Source of the DNA: a virus
Lineage: Duplodnaviria; Caudoviricetes
Strand: one strand, 5' to 3'
IMG/VR virus record: IMGVR_UViG_3300047564_001818
Length of the DNA stretch: 64,000 bases
The position numbers were made by a program, and so were the translations under genes. Shown here piece after piece: positions 37,419 to 64,000 of the stretch; the first letter of the stretch is position 1, and every line of letters begins with the position of its first letter. The notes beneath the pieces were generated by a model, which had not been told where the DNA came from, searched no databases, and saw only the letters and a list, made by a program, of their open reading frames with translations.

Positions 37419-40400
37419 TTAGACTACGCCGCCTGCATCTATGCTGCTAATGCCTCCATAGTTAGAATCAGGTTGGCCGCCATCTAAGTTGCCAAATGAT
37501 CCTGCTGCTGTACTAGATATAACCAATGCTTTAGGATTACTGCTGGTATCAGTTGTAAGAATAATATTATTGCCCGCAACAATTTCTAAAGTATCTAAAC
37601 CTATAGCAATTAAATCTTCTTCGCCATCTACTTTGATAGTTTTGAAGGTGCTGTTCATACCTATTTTAACTGAGCCCGACCCTAGATCTGTTACGTCAAA
37701 CCCGCTATCAGTGTCAAATCTTATAGTTTCAACATTAAGAACAGTGAGTTGTCCTATGTTGTTGTCGCTGTCTATAGTGCCCACAGTTACAGTAGCACCG
37801 CTGCCTGCTTCACCCTTACTGCCAGTGAAACCAATTTCACCTTGTATACCTTGGCTACCGGTGTAACCAATATCACCCCGACTACCGGTGTATCCGATTG
37901 CCGCAGCTTCACCCGGTATGCCTTGTGAACCCACAAAGCCTGTATCACCTTGTGAACCTGTATAACCAAATTCACCTTGACTACCGGTAAATCCAGTAAA
38001 TCCTCTGCTGCCAGTAAATCCAGTTATACCCTGTGAGCCAACAAAGCCTGTATCGCCCTGTGAACCAGTGTATCCAATTGAACCTGTATAACCCTGTTCG
38101 CCTTGTGAACCTACAAAGCCTGTATCACCCTGTGAACCTACAAATCCAACCGATCCTGTAAATCCATTTGAACCTGTGTAACCCGTGTCACCCTGACTAC
38201 CCGTGTAACCTTGAACACCCTGACTACCGGTATATCCAATAGAACCAGTATATCCTATGTCACCTTGACTACCAGTATAACCTTGATCACCTTGACTACC
38301 AGTATAACCAATTTCACCTCTGCTACCTGTGTAACCTTGATCACCTTGACTACCTGTGTAACCTTGATCACCCTGACTACCCGTGTAACCTTGATCACCT
38401 TGACTACCCGTGTAACCTTGATCACCTTGAGATCCCACAAAACCTGTGTCGCCTTGACTACCTGTGTAACCTTGATCACCTTGGCTACCGGTGTATCCAA
38501 TTGAACCAGTGTAACCAATATCACCTTGTGATCCTACAAAGCCTGTATTGCCTTGTGAGCCAGTGTAACCTTGATCACCTTGTGATCCTACAAAGCCTGT
38601 ATTGCCTTGGCTACCTGTAAATCCAACTTCACCTCGACTTCCTGTAAATCCAACTTCACCTCGACTACCGGTATAACCTAGCTCACCTATATTTCTTACA
38701 ATAAAAGTTCCTACCATCGATCCATGGAATTGGCAAATATAGTACAGTATGTTAGGTGCATCCAGCGGCACTGTAAATGTTATTATACCAGAATCTATAC
38801 CATTATTCAGTACGCCATTTGTATATGCATTATTTGTTCCAGTGGTTTGACTTGTTTTAATCCAAAATGGATGTCCTGGTGCGTTAATATTAAAGTAATA
38901 AGTAGTACCTCTTGCTAGAGTAATTGTAGGATTGTTGCTACCTAGAATTGTATAAGCACTAGCACCACTATTAGAAACTGTGTAAGTTACTCCACCAATT
39001 ATACCTTGTGAACCTACAAAGCCTGTATCGCCTCTACTGCCAGTAAAGCCTTGACTACCATTAAATCCAATAGGTCCTTGACTACCTGTAAAACCAAGGT
39101 CACCTCTACTACCTACAAAGCCGCCGCTGCCTCTACTACCTGTAAATCCTACACCCTGGCTACCAGTGTAACCTTGATCACCTCTAGTACCAATATCACC
39201 TTTGCTGCCAGTAAAGCCTCGACTACCAGTAAATCCTACTAATCCCTGAATACCCGGGAAACCTTGTGAACCTGCAAATCCTCTACTACCTGTAAATCCA
39301 GTATCACCTTGATTACCTTGATTACCTTGATTACCTTGAGATCCAGTAAACCCTCTACTGCCAGTATATCCTAAGAATCCTTGTTCACCTTGACTACCAG
39401 TAAAGCCAGTGTCTCCACGGCTACCAGTATAACCATCAGGATCTCCCTTGTCACCTTTTGATCCAGTAAAGCCGATAGATCCTGTGTAACCAATTGCTGC
39501 TGCTTCACCTGGTATACCCTGTGAACCAACAAATCCAGTTAATCCTCTACTGCCTGTAAATCCAGTATCACCTTGTATACCTTGATCACCTTGCTCGCCC
39601 TGACTACCAGTGAAACCAGTACTGCCCTCACTACCAGTGTAACCCAATGCAGCAAACTCACCCGGTATACCTTGAAGACCTTGCGATCCAGTGAATCCTC
39701 TGCTACCATTAAATCCAGTGTCGCCTTGCGAACCAACGTATCCTGTGTCGCCTTGAAGCCCTTGTGATCCAGTATAACCTTGAAGACCTTGGCTACCTGT
39801 AAAACCAGTGTCGCCACGGCTTCCGTCATAACCGGTTACACCCTGACTACCAGTAAAGCCGATAGATCCTGTGTAACCAACGTCACCCTGCGAACCTGTA
39901 TAACCCAATGCAGCAAACTCACCCGGTATACCTTGGCTACCAGTAAAACCAGTGTCGCCTTGTGATCCTACAAAACCAGTGTCGCCTTGTGATCCTGTGT
40001 ATCCTATAAATGCAGCTTCACCTGGTATACCTTGTGGACCTTGTGAACCAGTAAAACCAATTGGTCCTATTTCACCTTGATCACCTGTATTACCTTTTGA
40101 TCCAGTAAAGCCGATAGATCCTGTATAGCCTATTGGGCCTATTTCGCCAGTGTCACCTTGGCTACCAGTATAACCAAGTTCACCTCTACTACCAGTATAA
40201 CCCGTGTCGCCTTGACTGCCCGTAAACCCTAGTTCACCCTGTGACCCTGTAAGTCCTACGGCAGCAAACTCACCTGGTATACCTTGTGAACCAGTATAAC
40301 CCTGTTCACCTTGTGTTCCTTGGTCACCTTTGCTGCCTACAAAACCAGTGTCACCTCTACTGCCAGTAAAGCCTCGACTACCAGTAAATCCAATAGGTCC

Positions 40401-47370: not shown

Positions 47371-48675
47371 TTAACGTTGTTCAATCCAAGTCATAGTTCC
47401 TGCGGCCGTGGCGTTGTTGGTAGGGCTGGCCATAGCCAATGTTAGTGTGTCGCTGACCGTGCCTAGACTGCTTCTACCTAACTGATATCTAGTGTCTTGA
47501 TTTAGTTCTATCTGTAGGCCTTGAGCATTCACAGACACAAATCCGCTGTCTATGTCTACACCGCCGGTGTATGCTGTGGCAGTTTCGTCATACTGTGTAA
47601 AACTGTTAGGATCAGGCATGTTCACAAAGTTTGCACCTGTTAGCGTAGCATTGAAGATTAACTTGTAGAACACATTGGCGTTGCTGAGAGATATAGCCTG
47701 AAAGTAGGCGGGAAGGACAATGCCGCTCAGTGCGGTGGACTTGAGTCTAATAGTCAACACTGGTCGGAAGATGTTGGGGGCCCCTAGGCTCTTGCCTGTG
47801 ATAGTAGAAGTAATATTCTGTGCGATACCTAGTTTGCCCACTACACCTTCTGATATGACACTGTTAGATCCTTGGAACATCCTGTGTGTACCTGGCACGC
47901 CAGTGACATTGGTTAGTTCTAACCGTATGGGCAGGAATGGTGTGGAGGTGTATACAGTGGATATGCGGTTGGCGTGATAAAATGTGTGTATGGTATGAGC
48001 AGCACCATCTATGATAAACTTTATCTTTACAGCACCAGCTCCATACCACTCATAGTCAAACAACACCAACTGTTGTGCTGTAGGATCAGCTACAATACCA
48101 CTGATACCCAGTCCATCCAGTCTATCACCGTTCCACTGTTCTCTAGGTATGCGTGTCAGTGTTGGACCGCCGGGTCCGTTGAAGTTGCGTATGCAACAGT
48201 AATAGTTACCATCGCCGCCATCTTCAAAGAAGATACCATCACGCTCGTTGAACAGTCCAAAACGACGGCGTACTCCTATAACAGGTGCTTCCAACCTTAT
48301 GCCAAAACTTAGTTCTGAACTGCGACCAGGAATGTATCTCATCACATTACGAGTCTGTCTGATGACTTCAGCCCCTACTGTGTCATCAACTTCCATAATC
48401 ACTCCGCTGACTGTGACATCGTGAACAGCAGAGCCGCCTGTGGTGACAGCTTCATCCCACACATCGGTTTCTTTACCAAACTGAAAGGTGTTGAAGAACT
48501 GTGTTTCGTAGTTGCTGACTTTGATTCTGTTCTTGCTGGTATAGTCTCCAGAACTGTCAGTGGTTCGTAAGATTGGTTTGCCATCAAAGTTGTAGTCTAG
48601 GGCATGATGGATGTCATTGGTGTTGGGTTCGAAACTGTGAACATAGTTAGTGCTGTTGGGATTTAGGTTAGGCAT
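47371..48675 (-). CDS. putative virion structural protein
   Basis: 434 aa beta-rich. Confidence 0.65.
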   Translation of the reverse strand: MPNLNPNSTNYVHSFEPNTNDIHHALDYNFDGKPILRTTDSSGDYTSKNRIKVSNYETQFFNTFQFGKETDVWDEAVTTGGSAVHDVTVSGVIMEVDDTVGAEVIRQTRNVMRYIPGRSSELSFGIRLEAPVIGVRRRFGLFNERDGIFFEDGGDGNYYCCIRNFNGPGGPTLTRIPREQWNGDRLDGLGISGIVADPTAQQLVLFDYEWYGAGAVKIKFIIDGAAHTIHTFYHANRISTVYTSTPFLPIRLELTNVTGVPGTHRMFQGSNSVISEGVVGKLGIAQNITSTITGKSLGAPNIFRPVLTIRLKSTALSGIVLPAYFQAISLSNANVFYKLIFNATLTGANFVNMPDPNSFTQYDETATAYTGGVDIDSGFVSVNAQGLQIELNQDTRYQLGRSSLGTVSDTLTLAMASPTNNATAAGTMTWIEQR

Positions 48676-49643: not shown

Positions 49644-50843
49644 ATGATAAACTTAGATCCATTTCAATTGCTGATAGATCAGCTGAAAACTGAAGGCAAG
49701 TACCGAGTGTTCAACGACATAGTTCGCGAGCGTGGTGAATTTCCACGGGCCATTTGGTACGGTCCATACGCAATTAAAAATATCGTAAACTGGTGCTCCA
49801 ACGATTATTTGGGAATGGGTCAACACAGAGTGGTAATTGATGCGATGCATACTGCGCTTGATCAAACGGGTGCAGGCAGCGGAGGCACTAGAAACATAGG
49901 CGGCACAAGTCATTATCACGTTGCACTGGAACACGAGCTTGCCAATCTCCATAACAAGAACAGTGCTCTATTGTTTTCCAGTGCTTATGTCGCAAATGAA
50001 TGGAGTCTGATTGCTCTAAGCCAAATCGTTCCCAACATTGTGTTTTTGAGTGATAGTAAAAATCACGCAAGCCTAATACAGGGTATCCGCCACAGTGGTG
50101 CAGCCAAAGTGATTTGGCAACACAACGATATGAGCGATCTAGCTGCTAAACTGGCCCAGGTCGTCGCACAAAACCAAACTCCCTGCATAGTGTTTGAGTC
50201 TGTGTATAGCATGGACGGCGATGTAAGCCTAATAGCAGACATTTGCGATCTTGCCCAGCGTTACGGTGCTATAACCTATATTGATGAAGTCCATGCCGTG
50301 GGATTGTATGGCCAGCGTGGAGCAGGGTATCTAGAGCATCTAGGTATTCAAGATAGAGTAGATATAGTCAACGGCACGCTGGGCAAGGCCTATGGCGTTA
50401 CAGGCGGTTATATAGCAGCGGAACGGGTAGTCATAGACGCAATCCGCTTGGTGGCCAGTGGGTTTATTTTCACAACTTCGGTGTCGCCAGTGCTTTGTGC
50501 AGGTGCGTTGTCCTCAATAAAGTATTTAAAAGTTCACAACGACCTTCGTGTTCAGCATCAGGCTCAGGCACTCAAGTTTAAAACTCGATTGCAAGAAGCT
50601 GGCATAGAAGTTTTCGATAAAGCCTGTACTCATATCGTGCCCGTGATGATACGTGACGCTGTACGATGCAAAGCCATTTCTGATAGATTGTTAGATGAAC
50701 ACGGCATCTATGTGCAGAGCATCAACTATCCAACTGTGGCTGTAGGTGAGGAGCGATTGCGTTTTGCGCCAACGCCCTTACACACAGACGCTATGATAGA
50801 CGACTGTGTGCGAGCTCTTAGAAAGGTAATGAATGAAATTTAA
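49644..50843 (+). CDS. hemA: 5-aminolevulinate synthase (PLP, Shemin/C4 pathway)
   Basis: [62 protein letters not shown]. Confidence 0.92.
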
Positions 50844-51249
50844 ACAGTACGCCTACATGGCCTTGGGATTGTTCTGCGTGGGCATGGCCTACATAGGCAT
50901 CATAGTTCCAGGCATACCCTTTTCAATATTTCTAGTCATAGCAGCATGGGCTTTTGCTAAGAGTTCACCTAGACTACACCGTTGGTTGTACAATCATCCT
51001 TGGTTTGGTAGTTTCTTGACCAACTGGACAGAGAGGCGAGTGTTCCCGACTAAGGGCAAGTATGCTATGATACTGGTCATGGCATCTAGCCTAGCATTTC
51101 TTTGGTTCACCACTGAGAATGTCAAAGCTGTGCTGTGGAGCGGTGGGTTCATGCTGCTGGTTGCACTGTGGGCATGGCGTTACCCCGGCAGCTTAGAAGA
51201 ATACCAGCGCCGTGTAGACGCTGGTAAAAGGATCGCTTGGATCAAGTAA
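50833..51249 (+). CDS. ybaN: YbaN/DUF454 inner membrane protein
   Basis: GIIVPGIP...[21 protein letters not shown]. Confidence 0.8.
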
Positions 51250-51777
51250 TTAGGCTGCGTCAATATCCAACCACTGATACCAGCTGGGGTGACGCACTTC
51301 AAAAGGCAATTGCTTGCGCTTTCTAACCAGTTCCCAATAGCCTGGCGTGTAGGGTTTGTATCTAGGACGCATGATGCCCATGCTGTTGCCTTTGGAAGCG
51401 TTGCAGGGCGCACAGGCAGTGAGGATGTTTTCCCAGTTGGTCTTACCACCACGTGAAATCGGAATATAGTGATCCAATGTGGCAGTGCTTTTGGTAACTG
51501 AGCAACCACAGTAGGCACAGTGATACTGATCACGCAGATACACATTGCTCTTTGAGAAGCGAACGCCTGTCTTGCCACGCATGTAGTCTTTGAGCATGAT
51601 CACAGCAGGCACACGAGTTTCCCAAGAGGGGCTACGCACAGTCCAATCGTCGTACCATTCAATTACATTGCACTTGTCGTGGTACATATAGAGAACAGCT
51701 TCTTTCCACTGAATAGCTGAAAGCGGTAAAAAACTAACTGGTTGTGCGTCTGCGTTAAGTAACAGCGTGTCGCTCAC
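51250..51777 (-). CDS. HNH endonuclease
   Basis: LLLNAD, RDQYHCAYCG, TLDHYIPISRGG, ACAPCNASKG. Confidence 0.88.
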   Translation of the reverse strand: MSDTLLLNADAQPVSFLPLSAIQWKEAVLYMYHDKCNVIEWYDDWTVRSPSWETRVPAVIMLKDYMRGKTGVRFSKSNVYLRDQYHCAYCGCSVTKSTATLDHYIPISRGGKTNWENILTACAPCNASKGNSMGIMRPRYKPYTPGYWELVRKRKQLPFEVRHPSWYQWLDIDAA

Positions 51778-51862
51778 GATGTGTCCTTTCTGTGTTCATA
51801 TTTAGTTCACGGGTTGATCCCATGTTTATAATAGCTTGAGATTGAACTGTGTCAACCTTTTT

Positions 51863-52198
51863 CTAGAGAGCGGCCTTCTCTTCAAAGGGTGCTAGGCCTG
51901 CGCCTATGCCCACTACACAGGCCACGTGGTCCCAGGGAAACTCAATCACTATGGTGTAGGTTTCTGTTTGAGGATTCATATAGATTTTCCAAACACCATC
52001 TGCAAACTGTTGGTCGGCTTGCTGCATCATTCCTGGACCACCCACAAAGGGTATTTCATCAGTAGCTTGTACATAGTCTCTTACTGCGGCAGTGCTGGCA
52101 CAATCACTCAACAACAACATGGGCACACTCTGTGCCCATGCTGGTGAGGAGATTGTTAATAAAGACAACACCAGTGTACAAATTCTAAGCATCAGCAA
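51863..52198 (-). CDS. secreted/periplasmic hypothetical protein
   Basis: signal peptide ending AWA. Confidence 0.6.
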   Translation of the reverse strand: MLMLRICTLVLSLLTISSPAWAQSVPMLLLSDCASTAAVRDYVQATDEIPFVGGPGMMQQADQQFADGVWKIYMNPQTETYTIVIEFPWDHVACVVGIGAGLAPFEEKAAL

Positions 52199-52225
52199 TC
52201 TCCTAGATATACTAGTAGTTATCTC

Positions 52226-52813
52226 TTAGAAATAGCTGCGCCAAAAGCCTGAACTAACAGCTTCCAGTGCTAGGTCATACTGACGTTCTGGTTCTGCTGT
52301 GATCAACTCAGTGTCAGGCTGAGTCAGCAACAACCAAGTGGGACGTTCAGCAGTGAGTTCACGTTCTAGTGAGCGTGGTGGCCATGCTGTGATACCCAGT
52401 ATGTATCTGTAGTTGTGAGGAGTGTTGCCTGCCACAGCCTTTTCCAACATGTGATAGTCCGATGATATTGACCATTCGCTGTTGATCTGCATGGTATTGG
52501 CACTGAACCAAGCATTGTCATGCAGCATGATCAGCGCACTTCTGTTGTAGTCGCCACCTCTGTATACAGGTTGATCTTCTGCACAGTCATGGCCTTTGGA
52601 AGCTGCTAGTTCTCTAAAAGTTACAGTGAGCGGTGAGTTGAGCTGTAGAGCCACTGTTGAATAAGCTGTGTGTTCTGTAACAAAACAAACACGACGGTGT
52701 TCGCCCCAACGTGGATGACTGATTAAGATATCTCCAGGCTCTACCAATACGTCTCCTTCAACTCCAATCCGGAAGGTCGCCGCCATACTTGGCGCCTTTG
52801 AGCTTCTTGCCAC
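52226..52813 (-). CDS. YqgE/AlgH (DUF179) family protein
   Basis: GDILISHP, VYRGG, MLH, LGITAW..SLERE pattern. Confidence 0.65.
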   Translation of the reverse strand: MARSSKAPSMAATFRIGVEGDVLVEPGDILISHPRWGEHRRVCFVTEHTAYSTVALQLNSPLTVTFRELAASKGHDCAEDQPVYRGGDYNRSALIMLHDNAWFSANTMQINSEWSISSDYHMLEKAVAGNTPHNYRYILGITAWPPRSLERELTAERPTWLLLTQPDTELITAEPERQYDLALEAVSSGFWRSYF

Positions 52814-54356: not shown

Positions 54357-54570
54357 ATAGGCCCCGCAAGCCGGATACCTATAGGCCCCGCTGTTAAGTG
54401 CTATACACAGCTATAATGATTACCAGCACACACTGAGTCAGTACTGCACAAGCTGTGATTAGATTATTTCTACGATCACTGTTCATACACATACTTATAG
54501 CATAGGCCCCGCTGTTAAGGTTTAAGCGCACAGCGCAATATGCGTAACTGTATAGGCCCCGCTGTTAAGG
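54357..54570 (+). repeat. direct repeats ATAGGCCCCGCTGTTAAG (3 full + 1 partial)
   Basis: copies at 54357 (partial), 54381, 54502, 54552. Confidence 0.9.
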
Positions 54571-54802
54571 TTACGGCTACGGGTCATGTTTGAGGTCAGT
54601 GAGCGCTAGCTGTGCAACACTGTGAACTAGATTGCGACATGCACCGCACTGTGGCACTGTGTTCAGCACACGAAAGATCAACTCAGACTGTGCAGACTGT
54701 AACTGAACAGCACAGTGTTGCACAGCACTCGCAGTGAGATTGTGACACACGCATACACGCATATGTGTATTTACTGTAGGGCGTAGTAAAAAAGATCTGC
54801 AA

Positions 54803-54852
54803 AAAGATGAAAAAGTATTTGAACTATAAAGATGAAAAAGTATTTGAACTAT
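54803..54852 (+). repeat. 25-bp tandem duplication
   Basis: AAAGATGAAAAAGTATTTGAACTAT x2. Confidence 0.9.
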
Positions 54853-55001: not shown

Positions 55002-55370
55002 TTTCAATGGTTTATACGATCTAGCTCATCCTAGATCTACACTGTGAGCACAGGCTCGATTCTGCCAGCAAGATCAATGACTTAGCATAAGAAGTTCAAC
55101 TGACCAATACACTATATACTTCAATGACTTAGTGGGCACAGTTCATTCAGAGGTCTCAGATTCGATTCTGCCAGCAAGATCAATCACTTAGCACACACAG
55201 TAGATACACAGCAAGATCAATGACTTAGCAGCTACACTAGGTTCTGGTGCTAAGTGATTGATACTATTGGCTTTCTCGCATCAATAGCTTACACAGTGAG
55301 GTTGAACCAATGGTGGTACTTGTAGTCGTTTGATATCGTTGAGCTCTTTGCTACTGATAAGTCATTGATA
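55002..55370. promoter_or_regulatory. cluster of IHF-consensus-like boxes (WATCAA-N4-TTR)
   Basis: plus: 55072, 55120, 55178, 55215; minus: 55251, 55358; further copies 55757 and 63023. Confidence 0.6.
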
Positions 55371-55469
55371 TTGCTGTGTTCTTTTGGTGTTGGTGGCGGG
55401 GCGACGGTGTCGTTGCGTGTCGTGCGAGGGGTGTAAGGCAAAGTTTACAGGTGCAGTGGGAGGGAGATA

Positions 55470-55612
55470 GTTTAACATTAAACCATTCCTGCGGGGTAGT
55501 TTAACGTTAAACCATTTTGGGCGAGATTGTTTAGTGTTAAACCATTTTGAGGGAGACTGTTTAGTGTTAAACTATACAACCTGCGGCCAAGACTGTTTAG
55601 TCATTAAACCAT
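55470..55612. repeat. five palindromic iteron-like repeats GTTTA-N4/5-TAAAC, ~30 bp period
   Basis: starts 55470, 55499, 55529, 55559, 55595; copy 2 is the perfect palindrome GTTTAACGTTAAAC. Confidence 0.85.
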
Positions 55613-55847
55613 AGGTTCAGGGCTCCGTGCCCTCCCGTCTACCGCTCCTGGCTATCGCCTTCTCGCTAACCTCACTTACAGTATAGCACCTGTGCAGGAG
55701 TTTGCAAGAGAATGTATTTCAATGTTTTCAAGGGGTTAGGAAATAAATTTATTTTGTAAGTCATTGATCTACAAGGAAAGTTTTTGGTTGTGCTCGTGTG
55801 TAGATGTGCTATTGTATACGAGTAGGGCAACACAAGAGGGAACGAAG

Positions 55848-56147
55848 ATGGGATACTTTCTTTACGATCGGCACAACACTCGCATAGTCAGCAAGGAGTA
55901 CAAGACTCATGCTGCGGCACAGGCAGAACTTACTCGTCGTCGTAAGGCTGCTGCGGGTGAATGGGGTGTGCTTCACGCAGAAGACGATCCGCTGTTCTTG
56001 TTGGGCATTGCAGAGAAAGAGTACTACTTCCGTCACATTGAGCGCTCTGTGACTCGTGTTAACTTGATGACGGGCGCGGAGTACCGTGAGAGCGTGAACA
56101 CGCCTTTGGCTTGCTCGCCTGCTTCAGAAACCTACTGGAGCCAGTGA
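55848..56147 (+). CDS. early hypothetical protein
   Basis: cassette gene; VNLMTG...CSPASETYWS. Confidence 0.8.
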   Translation: MGYFLYDRHNTRIVSKEYKTHAAAQAELTRRRKAAAGEWGVLHAEDDPLFLLGIAEKEYYFRHIERSVTRVNLMTGAEYRESVNTPLACSPASETYWSQ

Positions 56148-56219
56148 TTAGAGGTTGACAAGCCCTACTCCCTGTGCTATATATATGTGGAGTAGGGCAA
56201 CACAACAGAGGGCGACACA

Positions 56220-56375
56220 ATGAATCCAGAAATTGAGTCCATGCTGCAATTGACTGTTGAGCAATTGCTAAACGAGGATGGTGTAGGATGCGATCCTGCG
56301 GCTTTGGCTGCGGCACTGCGCGAGTTTGCGGAAATGATTGAAGCAGACATTGAGGCTGGCGCTTACGCAGAATAA
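56220..56375 (+). CDS. 51-aa acidic early protein
   Basis: own promoter/leader cassette. Confidence 0.7.
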   Translation: MNPEIESMLQLTVEQLLNEDGVGCDPAALAAALREFAEMIEADIEAGAYAE

Positions 56376-56437
56376 CTGTTGACACAGCCTTGCAGATGTG
56401 CTATAACTTACACATAGGGCAACAAGAGGGAACTGAG

Positions 56438-56629
56438 ATGGAAAATTTGGCATTCTACTCTAAGTATGACTTTGTCAAACTGCTTCGTCAGAAGCGCGGC
56501 AAAGACTATACCCTTGGCTGGTTGGAGATGGCATATGCTATGCCGCCCACCACTGAGGAGTATGAGCAGGAGATGATCCGCAAGGAGATTCCCGTTCTGC
56601 AGGCGCTGCCGGACTACGACGGCGTCTAA
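56438..56629 (+). CDS. early hypothetical protein
   Basis: cassette gene. Confidence 0.75.
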   Translation: MENLAFYSKYDFVKLLRQKRGKDYTLGWLEMAYAMPPTTEEYEQEMIRKEIPVLQALPDYDGV

Positions 56630-56700
56630 GGGGTTGACAAGCTTCAAGGCTTGTGCTATAACTAACATATAGAGCAACACAGTGTAGAGGGATACACACA

Positions 56701-57114
56701 ATGGGAACTCGTTCAACTATCGCAATTGAAAACGCAGACGGCACTGTCACTGGCATCTACTGCCACTGGGACGGCTACCTGAGCCACAATGGGCAAATCC
56801 TGCAAGACCACTATACTGACGAAGCCCGGGTGCGTGAGTTGATTGCTCTGGGCCACATCAGTTCGCTTGGTGCTGAGATTGGCACTGCCCATGACTTTGA
56901 TGCGGCTCCGCGTGGCGAGTGCAATGCCTACGGGCGTGATCGCGGCGAGCGTGATGTTGATGCTTATACTGAGCACAACTGGCGTCAGTACTGTGCTGAG
57001 CACGGACAGGAATACGACTACCTGTTCACTCCTGGGAAGGGCTGGCTGGTCCGCACCTACAACGGCATCTACGACCTTGCTCGTGCATTGGCAATCGAAA
57101 CCGAAGAAGCCTAA
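56701..57114 (+). CDS. early hypothetical protein (MGTRS...IYCHWDGY type)
   Basis: cassette gene. Confidence 0.85.
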   Translation: MGTRSTIAIENADGTVTGIYCHWDGYLSHNGQILQDHYTDEARVRELIALGHISSLGAEIGTAHDFDAAPRGECNAYGRDRGERDVDAYTEHNWRQYCAEHGQEYDYLFTPGKGWLVRTYNGIYDLARALAIETEEA

Positions 57115-57186
57115 GGCAGAAAGTGGTTGACACAGCCCTGCAGATGTGCTATTGTATATGAGTAGGGCAACACAAGAGGGACTGAG

Positions 57187-57426
57187 ATGTACAAGATCTA
57201 TGGCGACTATGGTTACACCAGCGAATGCCTGCTGCACACAGCCGACACTCGTTCAGAAGCCCTGCGCTGGGCAGACGACTATATCGCAGACGACTTTGGC
57301 GGCTATGCTGTGATTGAGGTTGCGGTTCACCTGAGCAATGGCGAATACAGCACCATCCATACCTACCGTGCAGAAGACTACGAGTACGAAGGCGATGACG
57401 ATTTTGCACTCTTGGAGGACTTTTAA
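57187..57426 (+). CDS. acidic early protein
   Basis: cassette gene. Confidence 0.75.
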   Translation: MYKIYGDYGYTSECLLHTADTRSEALRWADDYIADDFGGYAVIEVAVHLSNGEYSTIHTYRAEDYEYEGDDDFALLEDF

Positions 57427-57427
57427 G

Positions 57428-57583
57428 ATGCTCTACTATGTGATGTGGGGCGTTGAGATCATCGCTGTATGCACTCGACCAGAAGATGCTCATGCAATGG
57501 CTGGCTTTGATTACAAGACCAAAAAAACCTACACTGTGGTAGCGAAAATGGTTGACAACACTGTAGAAGGTGCTATTGTATAA
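57428..57583 (+). CDS. 51-aa early protein running through next promoter
   Basis: GGAGG RBS; ends MVDNTVEGAIV. Confidence 0.55.
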   Translation: MLYYVMWGVEIIAVCTRPEDAHAMAGFDYKTKKTYTVVAKMVDNTVEGAIV

Positions 57584-57620
57584 GAGTAGGGCAACGCAAT
57601 AGCAGAGAGGGACACACGCT

Positions 57621-58025
57621 ATGGCATACGTTTCGCAAGAAGACAAAGCTAAACTGACTCCGGCGATCAAGGCTGTGCTGGCTAAGTATGGCATGAAGGG
57701 CACGATTGCTGTGCGTCATCACAGCACTTTGGTAGTCACTGTCAAGAGCGGTGCTATCGACTTCGGCGGCGACAACATTGATGTGAACGAGTATTGGATC
57801 GACCAGCACTACGAGGGCAAGGCTCGTAAGTTCCTCAACGAACTGCACAAGGCTATGATGGGACCGGACTGGTTCTGCGAAGACGACGCGATGACTGACT
57901 ACTTCCACCGCAGCCACTACTGCTCCATCCGCATCGGCAACTGGGGTCGTCCGTATGTGTTCATGGGACGCAGCAAGGACGGTATGGTAAACGGTGTGGC
58001 AGAAGAAGCCTACACCTTTGCCTAA
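57621..58025 (+). CDS. early hypothetical protein (MAYVSQE type)
   Basis: cassette gene. Confidence 0.85.
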   Translation: MAYVSQEDKAKLTPAIKAVLAKYGMKGTIAVRHHSTLVVTVKSGAIDFGGDNIDVNEYWIDQHYEGKARKFLNELHKAMMGPDWFCEDDAMTDYFHRSHYCSIRIGNWGRPYVFMGRSKDGMVNGVAEEAYTFA

Positions 58026-58098
58026 ATAATGGTTGACAGCACACCACTGTCGTGCTATAACTAACACATAGGGCAACACTGCTAGAGGAGCACAGCAG

Positions 58099-58500
58099 AT
58101 GGCATACGGTGATTTTGTTACGTCAGTTGGCGAAACGGTTGGCATCGTGCGTCAGCACCGCCACGGCACAATCTTGATGAGCCGCTTTGGCACTGTTACC
58201 AAGATCAACGGACACGGCCACATCTACGTCCAAAGCGAAGACAAGGAGTATCGCTTCACTCGCCGCGGCTATGCCTACAAGGACGACTATGGTCCTGGCT
58301 TGATGCACGCCGCTAAACTGCGGATGATCCAAGAGAGTGAGACTCGTCGCAAGGAGCAGGTGCGGATTGCTCGTGCTATGGAGCAGGAACTCAAGGAAGG
58401 CTACTCCTACTCGGGCCGCTTCTTCCCCACCGCAGAGCGTATTGCTGCTCTAAAAAATCTGCTTGCAGACTTGGAGAAAGTGGTTGACAGCACGATATGA
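58099..58500 (+). CDS. early hypothetical protein
   Basis: cassette gene. Confidence 0.8.
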   Translation: MAYGDFVTSVGETVGIVRQHRHGTILMSRFGTVTKINGHGHIYVQSEDKEYRFTRRGYAYKDDYGPGLMHAAKLRMIQESETRRKEQVRIARAMEQELKEGYSYSGRFFPTAERIAALKNLLADLEKVVDSTI

Positions 58501-58542
58501 TCGTGCTATAACTATAGAGTAGACAGCAACAAGAGGGCAAAC

Positions 58543-58821
58543 ATGATGCTGAATGTGAATGACACTGTTCGTGCTTACAGCGGCCGGCCTGGCTGCATGT
58601 GCGGCTGCAATGGCACCTACAACGAAGGCGAGCGGGCTCGCAAGATGGCACTGACTGCGCTGCTGAAGAACCCTGCGGTGCGCTTGCAGACTTGGAAGCC
58701 CTCCGGCGGCGATGCTGGTTGCTTGTATGTGGAAACTGCAACTCGCAACCGTGTGCTGTATCTGACTGAAGAGGGTGCTGCGAAGTTGGCTGCACAGTTC
58801 CCTGAAATGGTTGACAAGTAA
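58543..58821 (+). CDS. early hypothetical protein (GCMCGC motif)
   Basis: cassette gene. Confidence 0.8.
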   Translation: MMLNVNDTVRAYSGRPGCMCGCNGTYNEGERARKMALTALLKNPAVRLQTWKPSGGDAGCLYVETATRNRVLYLTEEGAAKLAAQFPEMVDK

Positions 58822-58868
58822 GAACGTTCGTGCTATAACTTACACACAACGAGGCAATGGAGGGTAAC

Positions 58869-59420
58869 ATGCCGAACTGGTGCTCAAACTCAATCACTAT
58901 CACTGGTCCTGTGGAGAAGATTGCTGCGCTGTGGACCGAGGCTTCCACAGCCGGCGAACACAACGCTCTGCTCAATGCTCTGTGTCCGATGCCTAAGGAA
59001 CTCTTAGAAGGTGAAGCATGGTATGGCTGGCGTGTGGCCCACTGGGGAACCAAGTGGGACATTGACATGCAAGGTCTCGAGTTTGAAGAGTTCTCGGACG
59101 GCACGGCTGCCGTCACAGGTTGGGCAGACAGTGCATGGAGCCCGCCCGTTGATGCGTTCCAGGCTTATAGCAATGAGAATCCTGATGTGATGATGGAACT
59201 CAAATACTTCGAGCCCGGCATGGGGTTTGTAGGTGTATGGGACAACGAAGGTGGAGATGCCTATTGGGAAGGTGTTGACGAGTTGCTGGACACCACAGAG
59301 GAAGAAGACGCTGTGCTGCATGAACTGCTGGAATACTTTGACGTGGCCAGTTGGTTTGAGTCTGACGACGAGAACCTCGAGATTGATCTTGACGGCGGTG
59401 TGAGTGCGACGAACGAATAA
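58869..59420 (+). CDS. DUF1281/YubB-like ferredoxin-fold protein
   Basis: MPNWCSN, HWGTKWD, SAWSPP, YFEPGMGFVG. Confidence 0.75.
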   Translation: MPNWCSNSITITGPVEKIAALWTEASTAGEHNALLNALCPMPKELLEGEAWYGWRVAHWGTKWDIDMQGLEFEEFSDGTAAVTGWADSAWSPPVDAFQAYSNENPDVMMELKYFEPGMGFVGVWDNEGGDAYWEGVDELLDTTEEEDAVLHELLEYFDVASWFESDDENLEIDLDGGVSATNE

Positions 59421-59490
59421 TAATGGTTGACACGGCTCTACTCATGTGCTATTGTATATGAGTAGGGCAACGCTGCTAGAGGAGCACACG

Positions 59491-59775
59491 ATGGCACGTA
59501 AGACGATCGAAGTTGGCAAGGTTCTTAAGATTGCGAATAACTTCCTTGCTGCGAAGCATACCACTGCTGATGAGCGCGAGAGTGTGTGTGCTGTGATGGA
59601 AGCTATCTTGTTTGAGACTGATAACTATCGCGGCTTTGCTTACCTGCCCAAAGAGAACTACGCCCACGAGACGGGCTTTGATCACGATGGCACTCGTCGT
59701 CGTTACTTCGTCAGCGGCACTATCGATGCTGACTACGAAGCAGAAGACCGCAACATCAACAAGATCCGGGCATAA
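59491..59775 (+). CDS. early hypothetical protein
   Basis: cassette gene. Confidence 0.75.
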   Translation: MARKTIEVGKVLKIANNFLAAKHTTADERESVCAVMEAILFETDNYRGFAYLPKENYAHETGFDHDGTRRRYFVSGTIDADYEAEDRNINKIRA

Positions 59776-59785
59776 GGAGAACGAC

Positions 59786-59950
59786 ATGAACCCGTTGGCT
59801 TTTTTTGCGATGGTGGGCTTTGTTGTATTACTGATCGTCAGCACCGCAGCTTATACCTTTTCTAAATGCGGCTGGTATACTTTTGCACTGGGCAACGGTG
59901 CTGCGATGGCTGCCGTCACTGGCATGTGTGATAAAATTAATGGAGAATAG
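59786..59950 (+). CDS. small membrane protein, paralog 1
   Basis: MNPLAFFAMVGF...AYTFSKC...TGMCDKINGE. Confidence 0.75.
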   Translation: MNPLAFFAMVGFVVLLIVSTAAYTFSKCGWYTFALGNGAAMAAVTGMCDKINGE

Positions 59951-59951
59951 C

Positions 59952-60119
59952 ATGGACCCTTTGGCTTTTTTTGCAATGGTGGGCTTTGTACTGTTGTTGG
60001 GGATTGGCACCATAGCTTACACCTTTTCCAAATGCGACCAGTATGCCTTTGCACTGGGCAAGGCGGCGGGGGTGTCGGTGCTGATCACTGGCATGTGCGA
60101 TAAAATCAATGGAGAATAA
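59952..60119 (+). CDS. small membrane protein, paralog 2
   Basis: MDPLAFFAMVGF...AYTFSKC...TGMCDKINGE. Confidence 0.75.
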   Translation: MDPLAFFAMVGFVLLLGIGTIAYTFSKCDQYAFALGKAAGVSVLITGMCDKINGE

Positions 60120-60120
60120 C

Positions 60121-60234
60121 ATGGACTGGACCATCGAGGAATATCTTGAGTTTGAACGGCACTTGCTAGAACAAGCAGAAGCGGACGAAGACGAAATTCC
60201 GGTTGACGAACCTGTCTACTGGTGCTATAACTAA
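60121..60234 (+). CDS. 37-aa acidic peptide running through next promoter
   Basis: GGAG RBS; ends PVDEPVYWCYN. Confidence 0.5.
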   Translation: MDWTIEEYLEFERHLLEQAEADEDEIPVDEPVYWCYN

Positions 60235-60262
60235 CACATAGGGCAACACAAAGGACGCTGAG

Positions 60263-60544
60263 ATGAATAACTTCGCAACTGCTGTCACCGCAATCCAAAA
60301 GATGAACAACGACGAACTGAACGCTGTGGTTCGTGCGATCAAACTGCGCCGCACCTACCTTGCTCGTCAGAGTGCTAACACTTTCCAAGTTGGCGACCGT
60401 GTGAGCTTTGCTGCTCGCGGTATGCAGGTGCTGGGCACTGTAACCAAAGTCAACATCAAGACCATCCAAGTCAAGCAGGACAATGCCTACACCACGTGGA
60501 AGGTACACGCAAGTCTTTTGCATCCTGTCAAAGAAATGGCTTGA
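60263..60544 (+). CDS. early hypothetical protein with SH3/KOW-like domain
   Basis: FQVGDRVSF...GTVTKVNIKTIQV. Confidence 0.75.
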   Translation: MNNFATAVTAIQKMNNDELNAVVRAIKLRRTYLARQSANTFQVGDRVSFAARGMQVLGTVTKVNIKTIQVKQDNAYTTWKVHASLLHPVKEMA

Positions 60545-60597
60545 CAGGTTGCTGTATACGTGCTATAACTAACACATAGAAACACAAGAGGGACACG

Positions 60598-60786
60598 ATG
60601 AAAGATTACATGACACTGATCGCAATCATTGACCGGCTAGGCTATATTGCAGAACTTCCGTCAGCTAAGATCCGCCAAGCACTGGATCAATACATTGCTC
60701 AACTGGAAACAGAAGTTCGTCAAATTGATGAAGAGACGGAACGTCAATGTCGAATTGATGACATGTTCGAGAACGTGCCAGTGTAA
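60598..60786 (+). CDS. early hypothetical protein
   Basis: cassette gene. Confidence 0.7.
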   Translation: MKDYMTLIAIIDRLGYIAELPSAKIRQALDQYIAQLETEVRQIDEETERQCRIDDMFENVPV

Positions 60787-60795
60787 ATAGACAAC

Positions 60796-60871
60796 GCCCG
60801 GTTAGCCCAAAGGTAGAGGCAACAGACTTAAAATCTGTCAAGCGTCGGTTCGACCCCGACACTGGGTACCA
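60796..60871 (+). tRNA. tRNA-Leu(UAA), short variable loop
   Basis: cloverleaf, ACAGA-CTTAAAA-TCTGT, TTCG loop, encoded CCA. Confidence 0.88.
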
Positions 60872-60876
60872 AACAT

Positions 60877-60953
60877 GGGGGATTAGCTCAATTGGTTAGA
60901 GCGACGGTCTCATAAACCGCAGGTTATCGGTTCAAGTCCGGTATCCCCTACCA
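60877..60953 (+). tRNA. tRNA with CAU anticodon (elongator Met or Ile2)
   Basis: cloverleaf, CTCATAA loop, paired 1:72, encoded CCA. Confidence 0.88.
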
Positions 60954-60959
60954 AATATT

Positions 60960-61036
<77 letters not shown>

Positions 61037-61039
61037 AGT

Positions 61040-61097
61040 TAGCAGGAGTTGAGATTGCGCTGTGTTGCCCTATGCTGCGTTGGATCTCCTCCTGCTA
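61040..61097 (+). ncRNA. hairpin RNA with loop antisense to early-gene leader
   Basis: TAGCAGGAG/CTCCTGCTA + GAGAT/ATCTC + GCGC/GCGT stems; loop TGTGTTGCCCTATG. Confidence 0.7.
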
Positions 61098-61127
61098 CGC
61101 TGATAGAGTTTAACCAAGGAGAACACC

Positions 61128-61307
61128 ATGGCTATCTGTCCTAACTGTCATACACCAGACAAGAACTTCTTTGCGCCTGCTTGCCATGCTTGCAACGAAC
61201 AGATTCCTTTGATCCAGCAGATCATTGTTAGCTTGATCTTCTTGTCAGTCAAGGCAGTGTTTGTGATTGCGATGTTGTGGTTCCTTTTTGTTTATCTTCC
61301 AGGTTGA
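61128..61307 (+). CDS. 59-aa CxxC..CxxC zinc-ribbon + TM protein
   Basis: AAGGAG RBS; CPNC...CHAC; hydrophobic C-terminus. Confidence 0.7.
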   Translation: MAICPNCHTPDKNFFAPACHACNEQIPLIQQIIVSLIFLSVKAVFVIAMLWFLFVYLPG

Positions 61308-61358
61308 CAACTGCTGCGTAGAGTGTATACTGAACAAGTAATGAGCAAAGGGCACAAC

Positions 61359-62360
61359 ATGACTAACGTTACAATCATTGACGGCACGTACAAGATCCGC
61401 GGCGCTGACACTTCAGTAGCTGGTCTGACCTTTCCGTTGGTAGAACCGTTCCGTATGGGCAAGACTGGCGGCTATGTCACTGTGGATGGTTCAGCTGTGA
61501 ATGGCTTTCCGGCTCGCAACATCAAGATCCGTGTGAACAGTGAGCAGGACTACGAACTGCTAGAAGGCCCCGCTGTATACAACTCTAGAACAGAAACTGA
61601 TGCGGAGATTGTTGAGCGCATCCGTAGTCGCTTTGCTATGCTGGGCGAGATGACCAAGGCTGTGAAGAAGGGCGATGTACGTGCTATGATCGTATCAGGT
61701 CCTCCGGGTGTTGGCAAGAGCCACGGTGTTGAAGAAGTATTGGATCGATACAAGATGATGGAGACCATGGGCGGCAAGAAGACACACGAAGTGATCAAAG
61801 GCGCTATGAGCCCGATCGGACTGTACTGCAAGCTGTTCAAGATGAGCGAAGCTGGAAATGTGGTTGTGTTCGATGACTGTGACAGCATCTTCCAGGAAGA
61901 CCTAAGCTTGAACATCCTCAAAGCTGCACTAGACAGCAAGCAGAATCGTTGGATCCACTGGAACACTGACAGCTTCAAACTGCGCAACGAAGGTGTGCCT
62001 GACAAGTTCAAGTTTGAAGCTAGTGCAATCTTTATCACCAACTTGAAGTTCGACAAGGTCAAAGGCAAGCTTAGAGAACACCTAGAAGCATTGGAGTCAC
62101 GCTGCCACTACATGGATCTAACGATCGATACCGAACGTGATAAGATGCTGCGCATCCGGCAAGTGATTGAAGATGGTATGCTGGATGTGTACACACTGAG
62201 CGATGACATCAAAGAAGACATCATCGACTTCGTGGACATCAACAAGAGCCGACTGCGTGAACTGAGTCTGCGCAGTGTGCTCAAGGTAGCAGACCTGGCA
62301 GTAAGCTTTCCAGACCGCTGGCAGGACTTTGCTGAGAATACGGTGATGCGTCGAGCCTAG
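61359..62360 (+). CDS. AAA+ ATPase
   Basis: GPPGVGKS Walker A, VVFDDCD Walker B, FITN, SRC. Confidence 0.9.
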   Translation: MTNVTIIDGTYKIRGADTSVAGLTFPLVEPFRMGKTGGYVTVDGSAVNGFPARNIKIRVNSEQDYELLEGPAVYNSRTETDAEIVERIRSRFAMLGEMTKAVKKGDVRAMIVSGPPGVGKSHGVEEVLDRYKMMETMGGKKTHEVIKGAMSPIGLYCKLFKMSEAGNVVVFDDCDSIFQEDLSLNILKAALDSKQNRWIHWNTDSFKLRNEGVPDKFKFEASAIFITNLKFDKVKGKLREHLEALESRCHYMDLTIDTERDKMLRIRQVIEDGMLDVYTLSDDIKEDIIDFVDINKSRLRELSLRSVLKVADLAVSFPDRWQDFAENTVMRRA

Positions 62361-62375
62361 CTCCGCATGCCGTTG

Positions 62376-62550
62376 GGACAATGGACCGCCCTCGTCCATT
62401 GTCCACATGTGGACTGAGTGTGCCCTCGCTCAGTTCACGAAGGCCGAAGCAGCCGATAAGAGCTGTTCGGTAAGGCTGGTAGACGAGCCCTCACGCTCTG
62501 CCAGAACAGCCCGGAGTTGGCGTGCCCTCTGCCGCTCCGGGCTATTTTTT
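62376..62550 (+). ncRNA. four-hairpin RNA, each loop carrying GCCCUC, last hairpin an intrinsic terminator
   Basis: stems 62376-62404, 62411-62436, 62476-62504, 62508-62543 + T-run. Confidence 0.75.
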
Positions 62551-62614
62551 TGGTTGACAAGCCGTGCAGAAGGTGCTATTGTTAACACATAGGGCAACAC
62601 GGAAGGGCAAGAAG

Positions 62615-63025
62615 ATGTACACCTTTGATGAACAGATTGTATCCGATCTCCACAAAGACGCTCGTGGCTACCGCCCAGATGCATACTTTTGGGAAGAGTG
62701 GAGCCAAACCGGCGACGACACTCGCCAAGCTATGTGGGACAACCTGCTGCAGGAACTGGCCGCTGAGACAGCACGTCAACAGGACGCCTATGCTCGTGCA
62801 GAGATTGAGTTCCATCAGCGTGTGCAAGGCATGATGCTCTCAGGTGCCAAGGACGAACTGACTGCTATCCGTTGGATCCTCGAAGCCGAACAGTTCACCG
62901 AGAACGATTGGGCTTACGGTTCGGACTATGTGGCTTTCCACTTCAACTTGCCCTACAAAGGCCTATTTGATCAGCAGATCCAGACTGTCCTCAACGAGAT
63001 GGAGACCCAGGCTGACCTTGGCTAA
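62615..63025 (+). CDS. early hypothetical protein
   Basis: cassette gene; MYTFDEQIVSDLHKDARGYRP. Confidence 0.85.
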   Translation: MYTFDEQIVSDLHKDARGYRPDAYFWEEWSQTGDDTRQAMWDNLLQELAAETARQQDAYARAEIEFHQRVQGMMLSGAKDELTAIRWILEAEQFTENDWAYGSDYVAFHFNLPYKGLFDQQIQTVLNEMETQADLG

Positions 63026-63154
63026 GTTATTGATAACATTGACAAAAACTTTTTTGTAAGTGCTTGTTTTCTAACAAAACATTTCTCTTGCAATGTGCGC
63101 TGTATAGTGTATAACTGTATTTGTAAGCAACACAGCATATGCGAGGAGCACAAT

Positions 63155-63433
63155 ATGCAAAACACTGTAGCAAATACTAATTACGTTTTTGTAATGCTTG
63201 ATGACGCTACAAACGCAATTGTACTGCGTATTAATAAAACTGTTGACGTTTTTTGCAATAGTGCAAACGACATAATTGCTGCATTTAAACAATATAATAT
63301 TACGGACTGCGACACTATTATGGCGAGCAGCGACGTGGATTTTGCTACGGAGTTTGACTATGCGTACGACAGTGCAGTACACGACATGCTTGACGAAGCT
63401 TTTGACGCACTAAATTTTAAACAATACGTTTAA
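63155..63433 (+). CDS. early protein with no Pro/Gly/Trp (YC-free DNA)
   Basis: GAGGAG RBS, own promoter. Confidence 0.7.
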   Translation: MQNTVANTNYVFVMLDDATNAIVLRINKTVDVFCNSANDIIAAFKQYNITDCDTIMASSDVDFATEFDYAYDSAVHDMLDEAFDALNFKQYV

Positions 63434-63522
63434 AAAAACAGCAGCACACAGCACTTTTTACTTGACAAGTGCTGTGTGCTGTGCTATAAGTTACACATAG
63501 GGCAACACAAGAGGGACTGCAC

Positions 63523-63714
63523 ATGACACGCGAAGAACTGTTTGCTAATATTGCACAAATTGCTGCTGACGCATACGACAACACAGATGCTGACGAAGTG
63601 CAAAGCTGGGATGCATACGAAGCAGCAAAGCAGATTGTTGCTGCAATGCAAGCGTTTGGCTACGACATTGCAGACATGTTGGAGCAAATAGAGGAAGACG
63701 CAGACGAAGCGTAA
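63523..63714 (+). CDS. acidic early protein (YC-free DNA)
   Basis: cassette gene. Confidence 0.75.
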   Translation: MTREELFANIAQIAADAYDNTDADEVQSWDAYEAAKQIVAAMQAFGYDIADMLEQIEEDADEA

Positions 63715-63814
63715 CACAAAAAAAACAGCAGCGCACAGCAACTTAGGGGTTGACAGTTGCTGTGTGCTGTGCTATTGTTAACACATAGGGCAACACAACA
63801 CAAGAGGGACCTCA

Positions 63815-64000
63815 AGATGAATACCACAAAGCGCAACGCTCAGTTCGAAGCAGCCTTTGATCGAGTGATCGAAGCCCAGCTGTTGATGGAAGGTATTGCT
63901 GTTCTCACTGCTGACAGCCACGCAATGGACATTCAGGCACGCCTGCAGAAGATTGTCAAAGAGATGTGGCAGTTCAAAGGCAACGTTGCTCAAGGACGCA
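63815..64000 (+). CDS. early hypothetical protein, truncated by window end
   Basis: cassette leader then MNTTKRNAQF..., open to end. Confidence 0.65.

Follow-up and report, generated by a model that had tools for sequence, protein, structure and literature searches.

The window analyzed here is a 64,000-nt stretch of the uncultured virus record IMGVR_UViG_3300047564_001818 (Duplodnaviria; Caudoviricetes) from IMG/VR. Close to its right end lie two small genes, here named A and B, which with their promoters occupy a run of 724 nt (positions 63087 to 63810, plus strand, i.e., the sense strand) that contains not a single CC or TC dinucleotide (5'-YC-3', hereafter YC). The run is bounded by a TC at 63086-63087 and a CC at 63810-63811. 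An initial annotation, made from the letters of the sequence, had described the interval 63088 to 63807 as free of CC and TC where dozens would be expected; our recount agrees, places that interval within the 724-nt run, and shows the effect to be stronger than first noted. With 139 C and 176 T in 720 nt, composition alone would give about 61 YC, and the YC density of the adjoining early genes (0.082 per nt) would give about 59; 0 were observed (naive P of about 2e-27). Elsewhere in the 64-kb window, YC-free runs reach at most 112 nt. Counted separately, the record runs at this locus are 794 nt for CC and 726 nt for TC, and no other dinucleotide in the window exceeds 282 nt. In a 330-kb relative (G001; 93% complete), a single locus holds YC-free runs of 963, 732, 677, and 214 nt, with other dinucleotide classes at 228 nt or less. 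These run statistics rule out chance and base composition as the cause.

The run opens at the promoter of gene A, P_A (63088 to 63115, plus strand), which consists of a -35 hexamer TTGCAA (63088 to 63093), a 16-nt spacer, and a -10 hexamer TATAAC (63110 to 63115). Its -35 hexamer is a GA-free variant of the TTGACA found in the rest of the promoter family, its leader is without the TAGGGCAAC box of that family, and it is conserved in two relatives (L010 and L011). Just upstream of P_A is an exact match to the IHF consensus (WATCAANNNNTTR; 63023 to 63035, minus strand), which is a consensus match only; of the two IHF-like boxes listed by the initial annotation this one stands, and the one at 63057 is not exact. 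The run includes a sub-stretch (63041 to 63143) that is also free of GR (i.e., GA and GG, which are YC on the other strand). The Shine-Dalgarno (SD) sequence of gene A, GAGGAG (63143 to 63148, plus strand), is among the few places where GR is tolerated. Gene A (63155 to 63433, plus strand) encodes an acidic protein of 92 amino acids without proline, and gene B (63523 to 63714, plus strand) encodes a very acidic protein of 63 amino acids; both contain 0 YC. Between them lies hairpin 1 (63441 to 63482; 16 bp; ΔG of about -28 kcal/mol), which is preceded by a run of seven A (63432 to 63438). Its loop holds the -35 hexamer of the gene B promoter, P_B (63462 to 63490, plus strand; TTGACA, 17 nt with TGn, TATAAG; leader ACACATAGGGCAACACAAGAGGGA), its 3' arm is the P_B spacer, and all of its steps are free of YC and GR. 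Hairpin 2 (63728 to 63770; 16 bp), preceded by eight A (63718 to 63725), is terminator-like for the minus strand and overlaps P_C, the promoter of gene C (63750 to 63778, plus strand; TTGACA-17-TATTGT). The YC-free run ends within the spacer between the SD sequence and the ATG of gene C (63817 to 64000, plus strand), which is cut by the window end, has a normal YC content, and forms the downstream boundary. In an identical contig (L013), gene C carries 16 YC in 189 nt, and everything further downstream is normal as well.

The promoters named above have sigma70-type -35 and -10 hexamers at a spacing of 16 to 18 nt, which again is a consensus match only. Neither hairpin is an intrinsic terminator for the gene (plus) strand, on which the tails that follow read CUAUAAG and CUAUUGU; tracts of seven to eight U follow the hairpins on the minus strand only. 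The mRNAs of A and B fold less stably than those of their neighbors, but folding is uninformative here because their GC content is also lower. A search for known RNA families returned only subthreshold chance matches.

Protein composition was ruled out as the cause, since synonymous, codon junction, and noncoding sites are all clean. Given the proteins and the codon usage of the neighboring genes, 17 YC would be expected in A and 10 in B, and none of 20,000 draws reached the 0 that is seen. The codons TTC, ATC, GTC, CTC, ACC, GCC, TCN, and CCN are unused in both genes (e.g., TTC 0 versus TTT 9 and ATC 0 versus ATT 9), serine is encoded by AGY only, and no codon ending in T or C stands before a C. 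The noncoding DNA of the run (254 nt) likewise holds 0 YC (P of about 3e-8). The depletion thus persists at synonymous and intergenic sites, where the initial annotation had proposed that it should vanish if the proteins alone explained it. Further points of that description also held: the run spans two genes and their promoters, the encoded proteins are without proline, TT is abundant (observed/expected ratio, 1.3), and the flanking early genes use YC freely (7 to 11 per 100 nt). Within the run, C makes up 19% of the bases versus 24% outside, T is up by 1.6 points, the share of A is 33% instead of 25%, and that of G is 23% instead of 28%. C has been shifted into AC and GC contexts (observed/expected ratio for GC, 2.0 to 2.4; for CT, 1.0), and codon choice favors GCA over GCT and, modestly, GAC over GAT (P = 0.001).

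Relatives were found by a leader-motif scan combined with protein look-ups; they come from many independent metagenomes and include G001. Their YC-free runs measure 494 to 1283 nt, with the 1283-nt run in a more distant relative (L024). An assembly artifact was ruled out, as the same state is found in independent JGI, ENA, NCBI, and Logan assemblies. Besides A and B, the trait is common to at least 10 unrelated small early-gene families that vary in orientation and position; the clean families and genes, which together with A and B we call the guild, are A', C', MRK, D, E, MKVKV, MQNIA, MQNTQ, and genes g3 and g4 of L024. The sense strand of family E is clean either way around, i.e., with the gene on the minus strand in L011 and on the plus strand in L024. 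Clean genes are interspersed with normal genes in L010 and L016, and this interspersion, along with moves between relatives, rules out positional models such as a replication origin or a first-injected segment. An isolated clean gene in L016 has a run that extends from just upstream of its -10 hexamer into the spacer of the next promoter; the purge therefore goes by transcription unit. Across 151 genes, the density of YC is bimodal, with 16 of the 151 below 2 per 100 nt and a mode at about 8.

The clean state has been held through extensive sequence divergence. Among eight gene A sequences with nucleotide identities down to 74%, at least 150 substitutions have created a single YC, although 25 to 30% of random substitutions in gene A would create one; in gene B, at least 79 changes have created three. 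Profile searches identified remote A homologs (E values of about 1e-8 to 1e-5) in other phages of different GC content, and these genes are clean: L051/L052 have YC-free stretches of 745 and 587 nt across four genes, and the density in L053 and L055 is 0.7 to 1.5 YC per 100 nt versus 9 to 11 in neighboring genes. In the cultured OM43 phage Melnitz, a weak A homolog has 4.1 YC per 100 nt, a mild depletion that lies inside the range of its neighbors, and the trait is thus lineage specific and not imposed by the protein family or fold. The gene order around A and B varies among relatives, and the cassettes are about 90 to 98% identical. The purge reflects strong, long-lasting purifying selection on defined early transcription units.

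The initial annotation had regarded the depletion as strand specific. GA and GG are indeed present in the run (64 occurrences), but all silent positions show a depletion of them as well. In every guild gene, GR falls below the protein-based expectation, and it does not do so in control genes. A purine follows a G-ending codon in 24% of cases versus 71% for an A-ending codon (odds ratio, 0.13; P = 1e-28); the corresponding control values, 60% versus 67%, do not differ significantly. Glycine drops from 8% to 1.6% in guild proteins, and GAA outnumbers GAG by 50 to 25 in the guild codon counts. The occurrence of C before residual GA is also seen in controls and hence is not specific. Of the 64 residual GR in the window run (20 GG and 42 to 44 GA), 33 are positions 1 and 2 of Asp, Glu, or Gly codons and 20 are noncoding, the latter all lying in SD sequences, in TTGACA boxes with a GGGG flank, or in the TAGGGCAAC leader box. 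GA-free -35 variants are found in P_A and in the D and E promoters. In three relatives, about 700 nt lack CC, TC, GA, and GG altogether (L011:11913-12603, L020:11645-12324, and L025:3821-4475). These segments cover the divergent, sigma70-like D and E promoters (-35 TTGCAT/TTGCGT), the untranscribed DNA between them, and gene D; the D and E leaders have no SD sequence and share ACAGCAAAGTG. The product of gene D (120 amino acids) is rich in N, Q, H, K, and A, has a CxC...CxC motif, and contains no D, E, G, W, or P; in-frame indels confirm the gene as coding. These patterns are most simply read as a single constraint against YC that applies to both strands, being complete on the sense strand, where it is cheap, and only partial wherever amino acids or signals are at stake.

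The gene A family comprises 32 close and about 20 remote homologs with the motif SSxxDFA[ST]E, and an AF2 model of A shows a beta3-alpha-beta-alpha2 arrangement (pLDDT 76). Protein B (37 homologs) is predicted to be a three-helix protein (pLDDT 80). Searches of 50,697 phage records gave no protein match for A or E; the remote A homolog P0074 matched only Methylophilales phage Melnitz, weakly, and P0078 had no match. A, B, and ten other guild proteins had no counterpart in Pfam or PHROGs, ESM Atlas yielded no usable match for guild proteins, and Foldseek against PDB and BFVD gave nothing significant (E values of at least 0.16). The best Z score in the VIA wide structure search with protein A was 5.8; chains of RuvC, integrase, and YqgF stood among the rows with Z scores of 4 to 5. 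From these weak structural ties, an RNase-H-like topology of the modeled protein A is only a lead, and the Asp of strand beta1 is not invariant across the family. Small, often very acidic, ORFan, early expressed, and shuffled in cassettes, the guild proteins are probably first responders in counter-defense. Many unrelated guild genes begin with the same MQN (ATGCAAAAC) behind a shared leader ending in GAGGGAAACACGCT (window 63155, L010:7677, L011:10645, L016:13120, L047:9474, and L051:1865), which suggests that new cassettes arise by recombination in this common 5' region.

Genes A and B stand within an early promoter array (55785 to 63800, plus strand) with at least 15 sigma70-type promoters and small genes of normal YC content. 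The array promoters are near consensus (GGTTGACA-N17 with TGn-TATAAC/TATTGT) and are followed by a conserved leader, and intrinsic terminators are almost absent from the array. Spacer and transcribed leader are inverted repeats of each other on either side of the -10 hexamer in many early promoters (e.g., CCCTACTCC...GGAGTAGGG at 56160-56200 and CTCTACTCAT...ATGAGTAG at 59430-59465); this arrangement may be the operator for a regulator of early genes, and its CCCTA half is impossible in YC-free promoters. A conserved 14-mer, GGCCCCGCTGTTAA, has three copies in the window (54381 to 54572) and recurs in the early regions of relatives (L010:9164, L011:11232, L016:8059/8109, and L020:10964). Just upstream of the array is a repeat cluster (54803-54852, 55051-55230, and 55462-55572) made up of a perfect 25-nt tandem duplication, three 37-nt repeats, and about three 30-nt repeats with the palindromic core GTTTAACGTTAAAC; exact IHF-consensus matches follow the 37-nt repeats at 55251 and 55358, in related sequence. 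This cluster could be an origin or a regulatory region.

The minus strand of the window carries structural genes, a ribonucleotide reductase (RNR), and giant collagen-like fibers, and the window DNA had no match among known phages. The clade of phages carrying A and B consists of uncultured T4-style jumbo phages with host-type sigma70 early promoters. A virion structural protein (47371 to 48675, minus strand) shares about 54% identity with proteins of T4-like cyanophages (S-RIM2 and S-SZBM1; Kyanoviridae), the RNR is nearest to those of jumbo phages SCTP-2 and Atu_ph07, and psbA (PF00124) is absent from the 330-kb relative G001. Names of the source metagenome samples point to lakes, which we presume, from the names only, to be the origin. 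G001 has three clusters of tRNA genes, about 33 in all, that serve nearly every amino acid (L038:2344-2630, L041:8752-16898, and L043:1129-9801). The minus-strand regions at 37419-44891 and 21877-25227 include a 2490-amino-acid protein with nine He_PIG Ig domains and 11 collagen-repeat stretches, as well as a 1116-amino-acid fusion of GT1, GT2, and an FkbM methyltransferase; several further collagen-like fiber proteins are encoded on the same strand. Beside the array lies a conserved gene cluster (window 49644-52813, L016:2552-5633, L047:2732-5960, and L050:682-4437) encoding a class I/II aminotransferase, a DUF454 protein, a resident 170-amino-acid HNH endonuclease, and an AlgH-like DUF179 protein. 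Relatives also have a carbamoyltransferase gene between the DnaB and primase genes, and a radical-SAM gene. These genes may serve nucleic acid or metabolite chemistry. The distant relative L024 (L024:7037-10477) has, close to its early array, genes for an ADP-ribosylglycohydrolase (PF03747), a Zeta-toxin-like P-loop kinase, and a large sigma70-like protein with region 1.1; the first of these would be of interest if the YC-directed agent discussed below were an ADP-ribosyltransferase.

As an explanation of the purge, we tentatively favor a YC-directed cytosine enzyme that acts on mRNA and on DNA opened by transcription, with a probability of roughly 40%. Hosts or phages may hold a novel enzyme that attacks the C in 5'-YC-3', to which this phage lineage would have replied by recoding its first-responder guild; we give this formulation about the same 40%. 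For each guild gene, the whole transcription unit (promoter, leader, open reading frame, and hairpin) is kept free of 5'-YC-3'. The sense strand is cleared fully, at a cost of only proline, TCN serine, and some synonymous codons. The antisense strand is cleared as far as coding permits, with glycine cut fivefold, purines avoided after G-ending codons, and a -35 hexamer changed to TTGCAA, and some relatives go further, dropping the SD sequence and making one protein without Asp, Glu, Gly, or Trp. The factor would recognize YC in single-stranded or transiently opened nucleic acid, i.e., mRNA and transcribed DNA. The most plausible agent would be a cytosine-directed host defense enzyme (a deaminase, an ADP-ribosyltransferase, or a nuclease) with a short motif, like CmdT or DarT2. 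As the guild units hold no YC, they would offer such an agent no target, and their products could still be made intact while other genes are vulnerable. Both the existence and nature of this agent and the counter-defense role of the proteins are what we infer from the pattern of avoidance. Of the two interpretations offered by the initial annotation, selection against a YC-targeting agent in a few early genes is retained, and a one-off local C-to-T decay is not.

Several points weigh against a YC-directed enzyme. Our literature searches found no YC-specific anti-phage enzyme and no account of YC-free phage genes. An agent that damages DNA would predict a better-protected template, yet it is the nontemplate strand that is perfectly clean, which calls for a coding cost or an RNA target; conversely, the purged untranscribed DNA between the D and E promoters is not expected of a purely RNA-directed agent. 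Unpurged early genes nearby share the same promoters, so a special role of the guild must be assumed. The guild proteins have no recognizable family or fold, and their counter-defense role is a guess drawn from their small size, acidity, early promoters, and cassette-like turnover.

Evasion of the termination factor Rho offers the only known exact match to the specificity: each primary binding cleft of Rho binds a 5'-YC dinucleotide, UC or CC (PMC12360218). YC-free transcripts could not load Rho and would escape premature termination even if poorly translated. The RNA of A and B has 0 YC from the promoter past the stop codon, the purge goes by transcription unit, genes D and E without SD sequences would be Rho-prone, the GR-free gene D could hide a long untranslated minus-strand read-through RNA toward E, and the early array is nearly without intrinsic terminators. 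Nevertheless, Rho needs several YC, and zero tolerance is not required; the transcripts are only 200 to 350 nt, have good SD sequences, and each have their own promoter; and the neighboring early mRNAs with normal YC evidently cope. Nor is the constraint confined to the RNA strand, since GR is avoided at silent sites (P = 1e-28) and untranscribed inter-promoter DNA is clean of both YC and GR. With GR avoided, antisense RNA would be immune to Rho, which ought to impair sense expression, and a lower G content favors Rho. We consider this explanation unlikely. A YC-directed enzyme of the phage itself, which would shut off host genes and the phage's own early genes through damage to, or termination of, their mRNA or DNA while the YC-free units keep working or encode immunity to it, makes the same sequence predictions as the enzyme that we favor. 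T4-type phages use C-directed nucleases, such as EndoIV, which cuts single-stranded DNA 5' of C and prefers TCA, as well as Alc against cytosine DNA, and the conserved resident HNH endonuclease adjoins the early array in all relatives. The middle and late genes of the same genome, however, carry normal YC. No protective cytosine or thymine modification pathway, phage RNA polymerase, sigma factor, or deaminase was found: G001 yielded no TGT/DpdA, ThyA-like enzyme, C5-methyltransferase, or CDA-type deaminase and lacked the Pfam profiles PF01702, PF00562, PF00940, PF04542, PF00303, PF00145, and PF00383, the absence of PF00940 being weak because a control search was silent too. Such a weapon of the phage's own appears quite unlikely.

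The purge is improbable as a mutational footprint, in which repeated C-to-U deamination (by APOBEC-like or DddA/SsdA-like enzymes) or UV acting on transcription-exposed DNA would have burnt out YC, with selection sparing only what the proteins require. APOBEC-like and bacterial toxin deaminases typically act on YC, which is also the classic context of (6-4) photoproducts, and the rise of A and fall of G are as antisense C-to-T changes would give, with TT at 1.3. Yet C is down by just 5 points and T up by just 1.6, contexts with a purine before C are enriched (GC, 2.0 to 2.4), GCA is preferred over GCT and GAC over GAT, and the -35 boxes TTGCAA and TTGCAT are functional variants rather than the decay product TTAACA. 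In addition, the bounds match transcription units while neighbors with the same promoters are untouched, and the state tracks gene families over phages, positions, and orientations, not exposure. The UV dipyrimidine signature suggested by the initial annotation is contradicted by the enrichment of TT (1.3) and by the fully clean strand being the nontemplate one, the template being less clean. Just as improbable is a role as modification-free islands, with a bulky virion DNA modification at YC, or at G in GR, that would leave the guild readable at once by unmodified host RNA polymerase. It would fit the constraint on both strands, promoters included; 7-deazaguanine occurs at GA/GGC in some phages, and carbamoyltransferase, aminotransferase, and radical-SAM genes lie near the junction of early and replication genes. 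Against it, the TGT/DpdA, ThyA-like hydroxymethylase, and C5-methyltransferase are lacking in G001, other early genes with the same promoters are YC-rich, and the motif itself sits in the TTGACA -35 hexamer of most early promoters. Evasion of DNA-targeting immunity, i.e., of protospacer-adjacent motifs (PAMs; type I-F, CC; type I-C, TTC; and NGG) or restriction sites (GATC, GGCC, CCGG, TCGA, and CCWGG), would likewise account for a both-strand constraint that includes untranscribed DNA, as YC/GR-free DNA is without all such motifs by construction. Cuts elsewhere would kill the phage equally, though, leaving a gene-specific purge without obvious benefit. The 64 GR in the window run leave PAMs on the other strand, GAA (antisense TTC) is preferred over GAG by 50 to 25, and 36 of the 64 palindromic hexamers remain possible by our own count; this explanation is very improbable.

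Our full-text literature searches turned up no earlier case in which selection keeps about a dozen gene families absolutely free of one degenerate dinucleotide. The locus shows how far a ban on a dinucleotide can reach over coding sequence, promoters, and ribosome-binding sites. Motif avoidance is a classic readout of the threats that a virus meets; this purge would be the sequence fingerprint of a YC-specific activity, and it supplies defined candidate counter-defense proteins. The YC-directed enzyme that we favor predicts that, in the right host, guild genes should be crippled by restoring synonymous YC. Scans of other viruses for long runs that lack a dinucleotide and end at transcription unit borders may reveal new immune mechanisms and their antagonists.

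Several known systems resemble parts of this locus. In the promoter-early stem-loop (PeSL) cassettes of T4-type phages, small novel open reading frames are each bordered by a stem-loop joined to a sigma70-type early promoter and are exchanged among related phages, and PeSLs were described as shuffling motifs (PMC2839356, PMC4122927). The locus has the same elements, i.e., 16-bp hairpins overlapping P_B and P_C beside small open reading frames, with gene content that varies among relatives; it differs in having the U tract on the opposite strand, and no compositional purge has been reported for PeSLs. CmdT of CmdTAC ADP-ribosylates GA in mRNA, and DarT2 of DarTG2 targets TNTC in single-stranded DNA. 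Both are enzymes with motifs of 2 to 4 nt acting on single-stranded RNA or DNA, and here GA and GG are avoided where possible and TC is absent. Neither motif equals YC, there is no tie to the host of these phages, and the authors of the CmdT study regarded escape through site loss as implausible; TNTC is necessarily absent from the sense strand, but the purge of CC and of TC outside the TN context is left unexplained. The rut sites of Rho present a similar case: Rho reads 5'-YC, so YC-free RNA would be invisible to it, and the avoidance of GR, the clean untranscribed DNA, and the short translated transcripts would be left unexplained. mRNAs lacking ACA resist MazF, and as in the present case a message would stay translatable during an attack on RNA because the cleavage motif is missing. 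Unlike in that system, the opposite strand and untranscribed DNA are purged here, and we know of no YC-specific RNase.

Avoidance of short motifs is also seen in other viral genomes. Eukaryotic viruses show TC depletion attributed to APOBEC3 (papillomaviruses and polyomaviruses) and suppression of CpG and UpA against ZAP and RNase L. These footprints likewise act at the level of dinucleotides and are driven by host factors, and the YC context is that of APOBEC; they are, however, partial (observed/expected ratios of about 0.5 to 0.8), genome-wide, and partly mutational, whereas the purge described here is absolute, local, linked to gene families, and selected. Among phages, depletion of restriction sites and PAMs is known, and the leading regions of T7 and T5 are poor in sites. 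As in those phages, a short motif is purged, mostly in early DNA that carries anti-defense genes. In contrast to them, the motif here is a degenerate dinucleotide, the purge is total over 0.7 to 1.3 kb and reshapes both proteins and regulatory signals, and it is tied to gene families rather than to the whole genome or its leading end. The YC purge is an extreme, previously undescribed form of target-motif avoidance.

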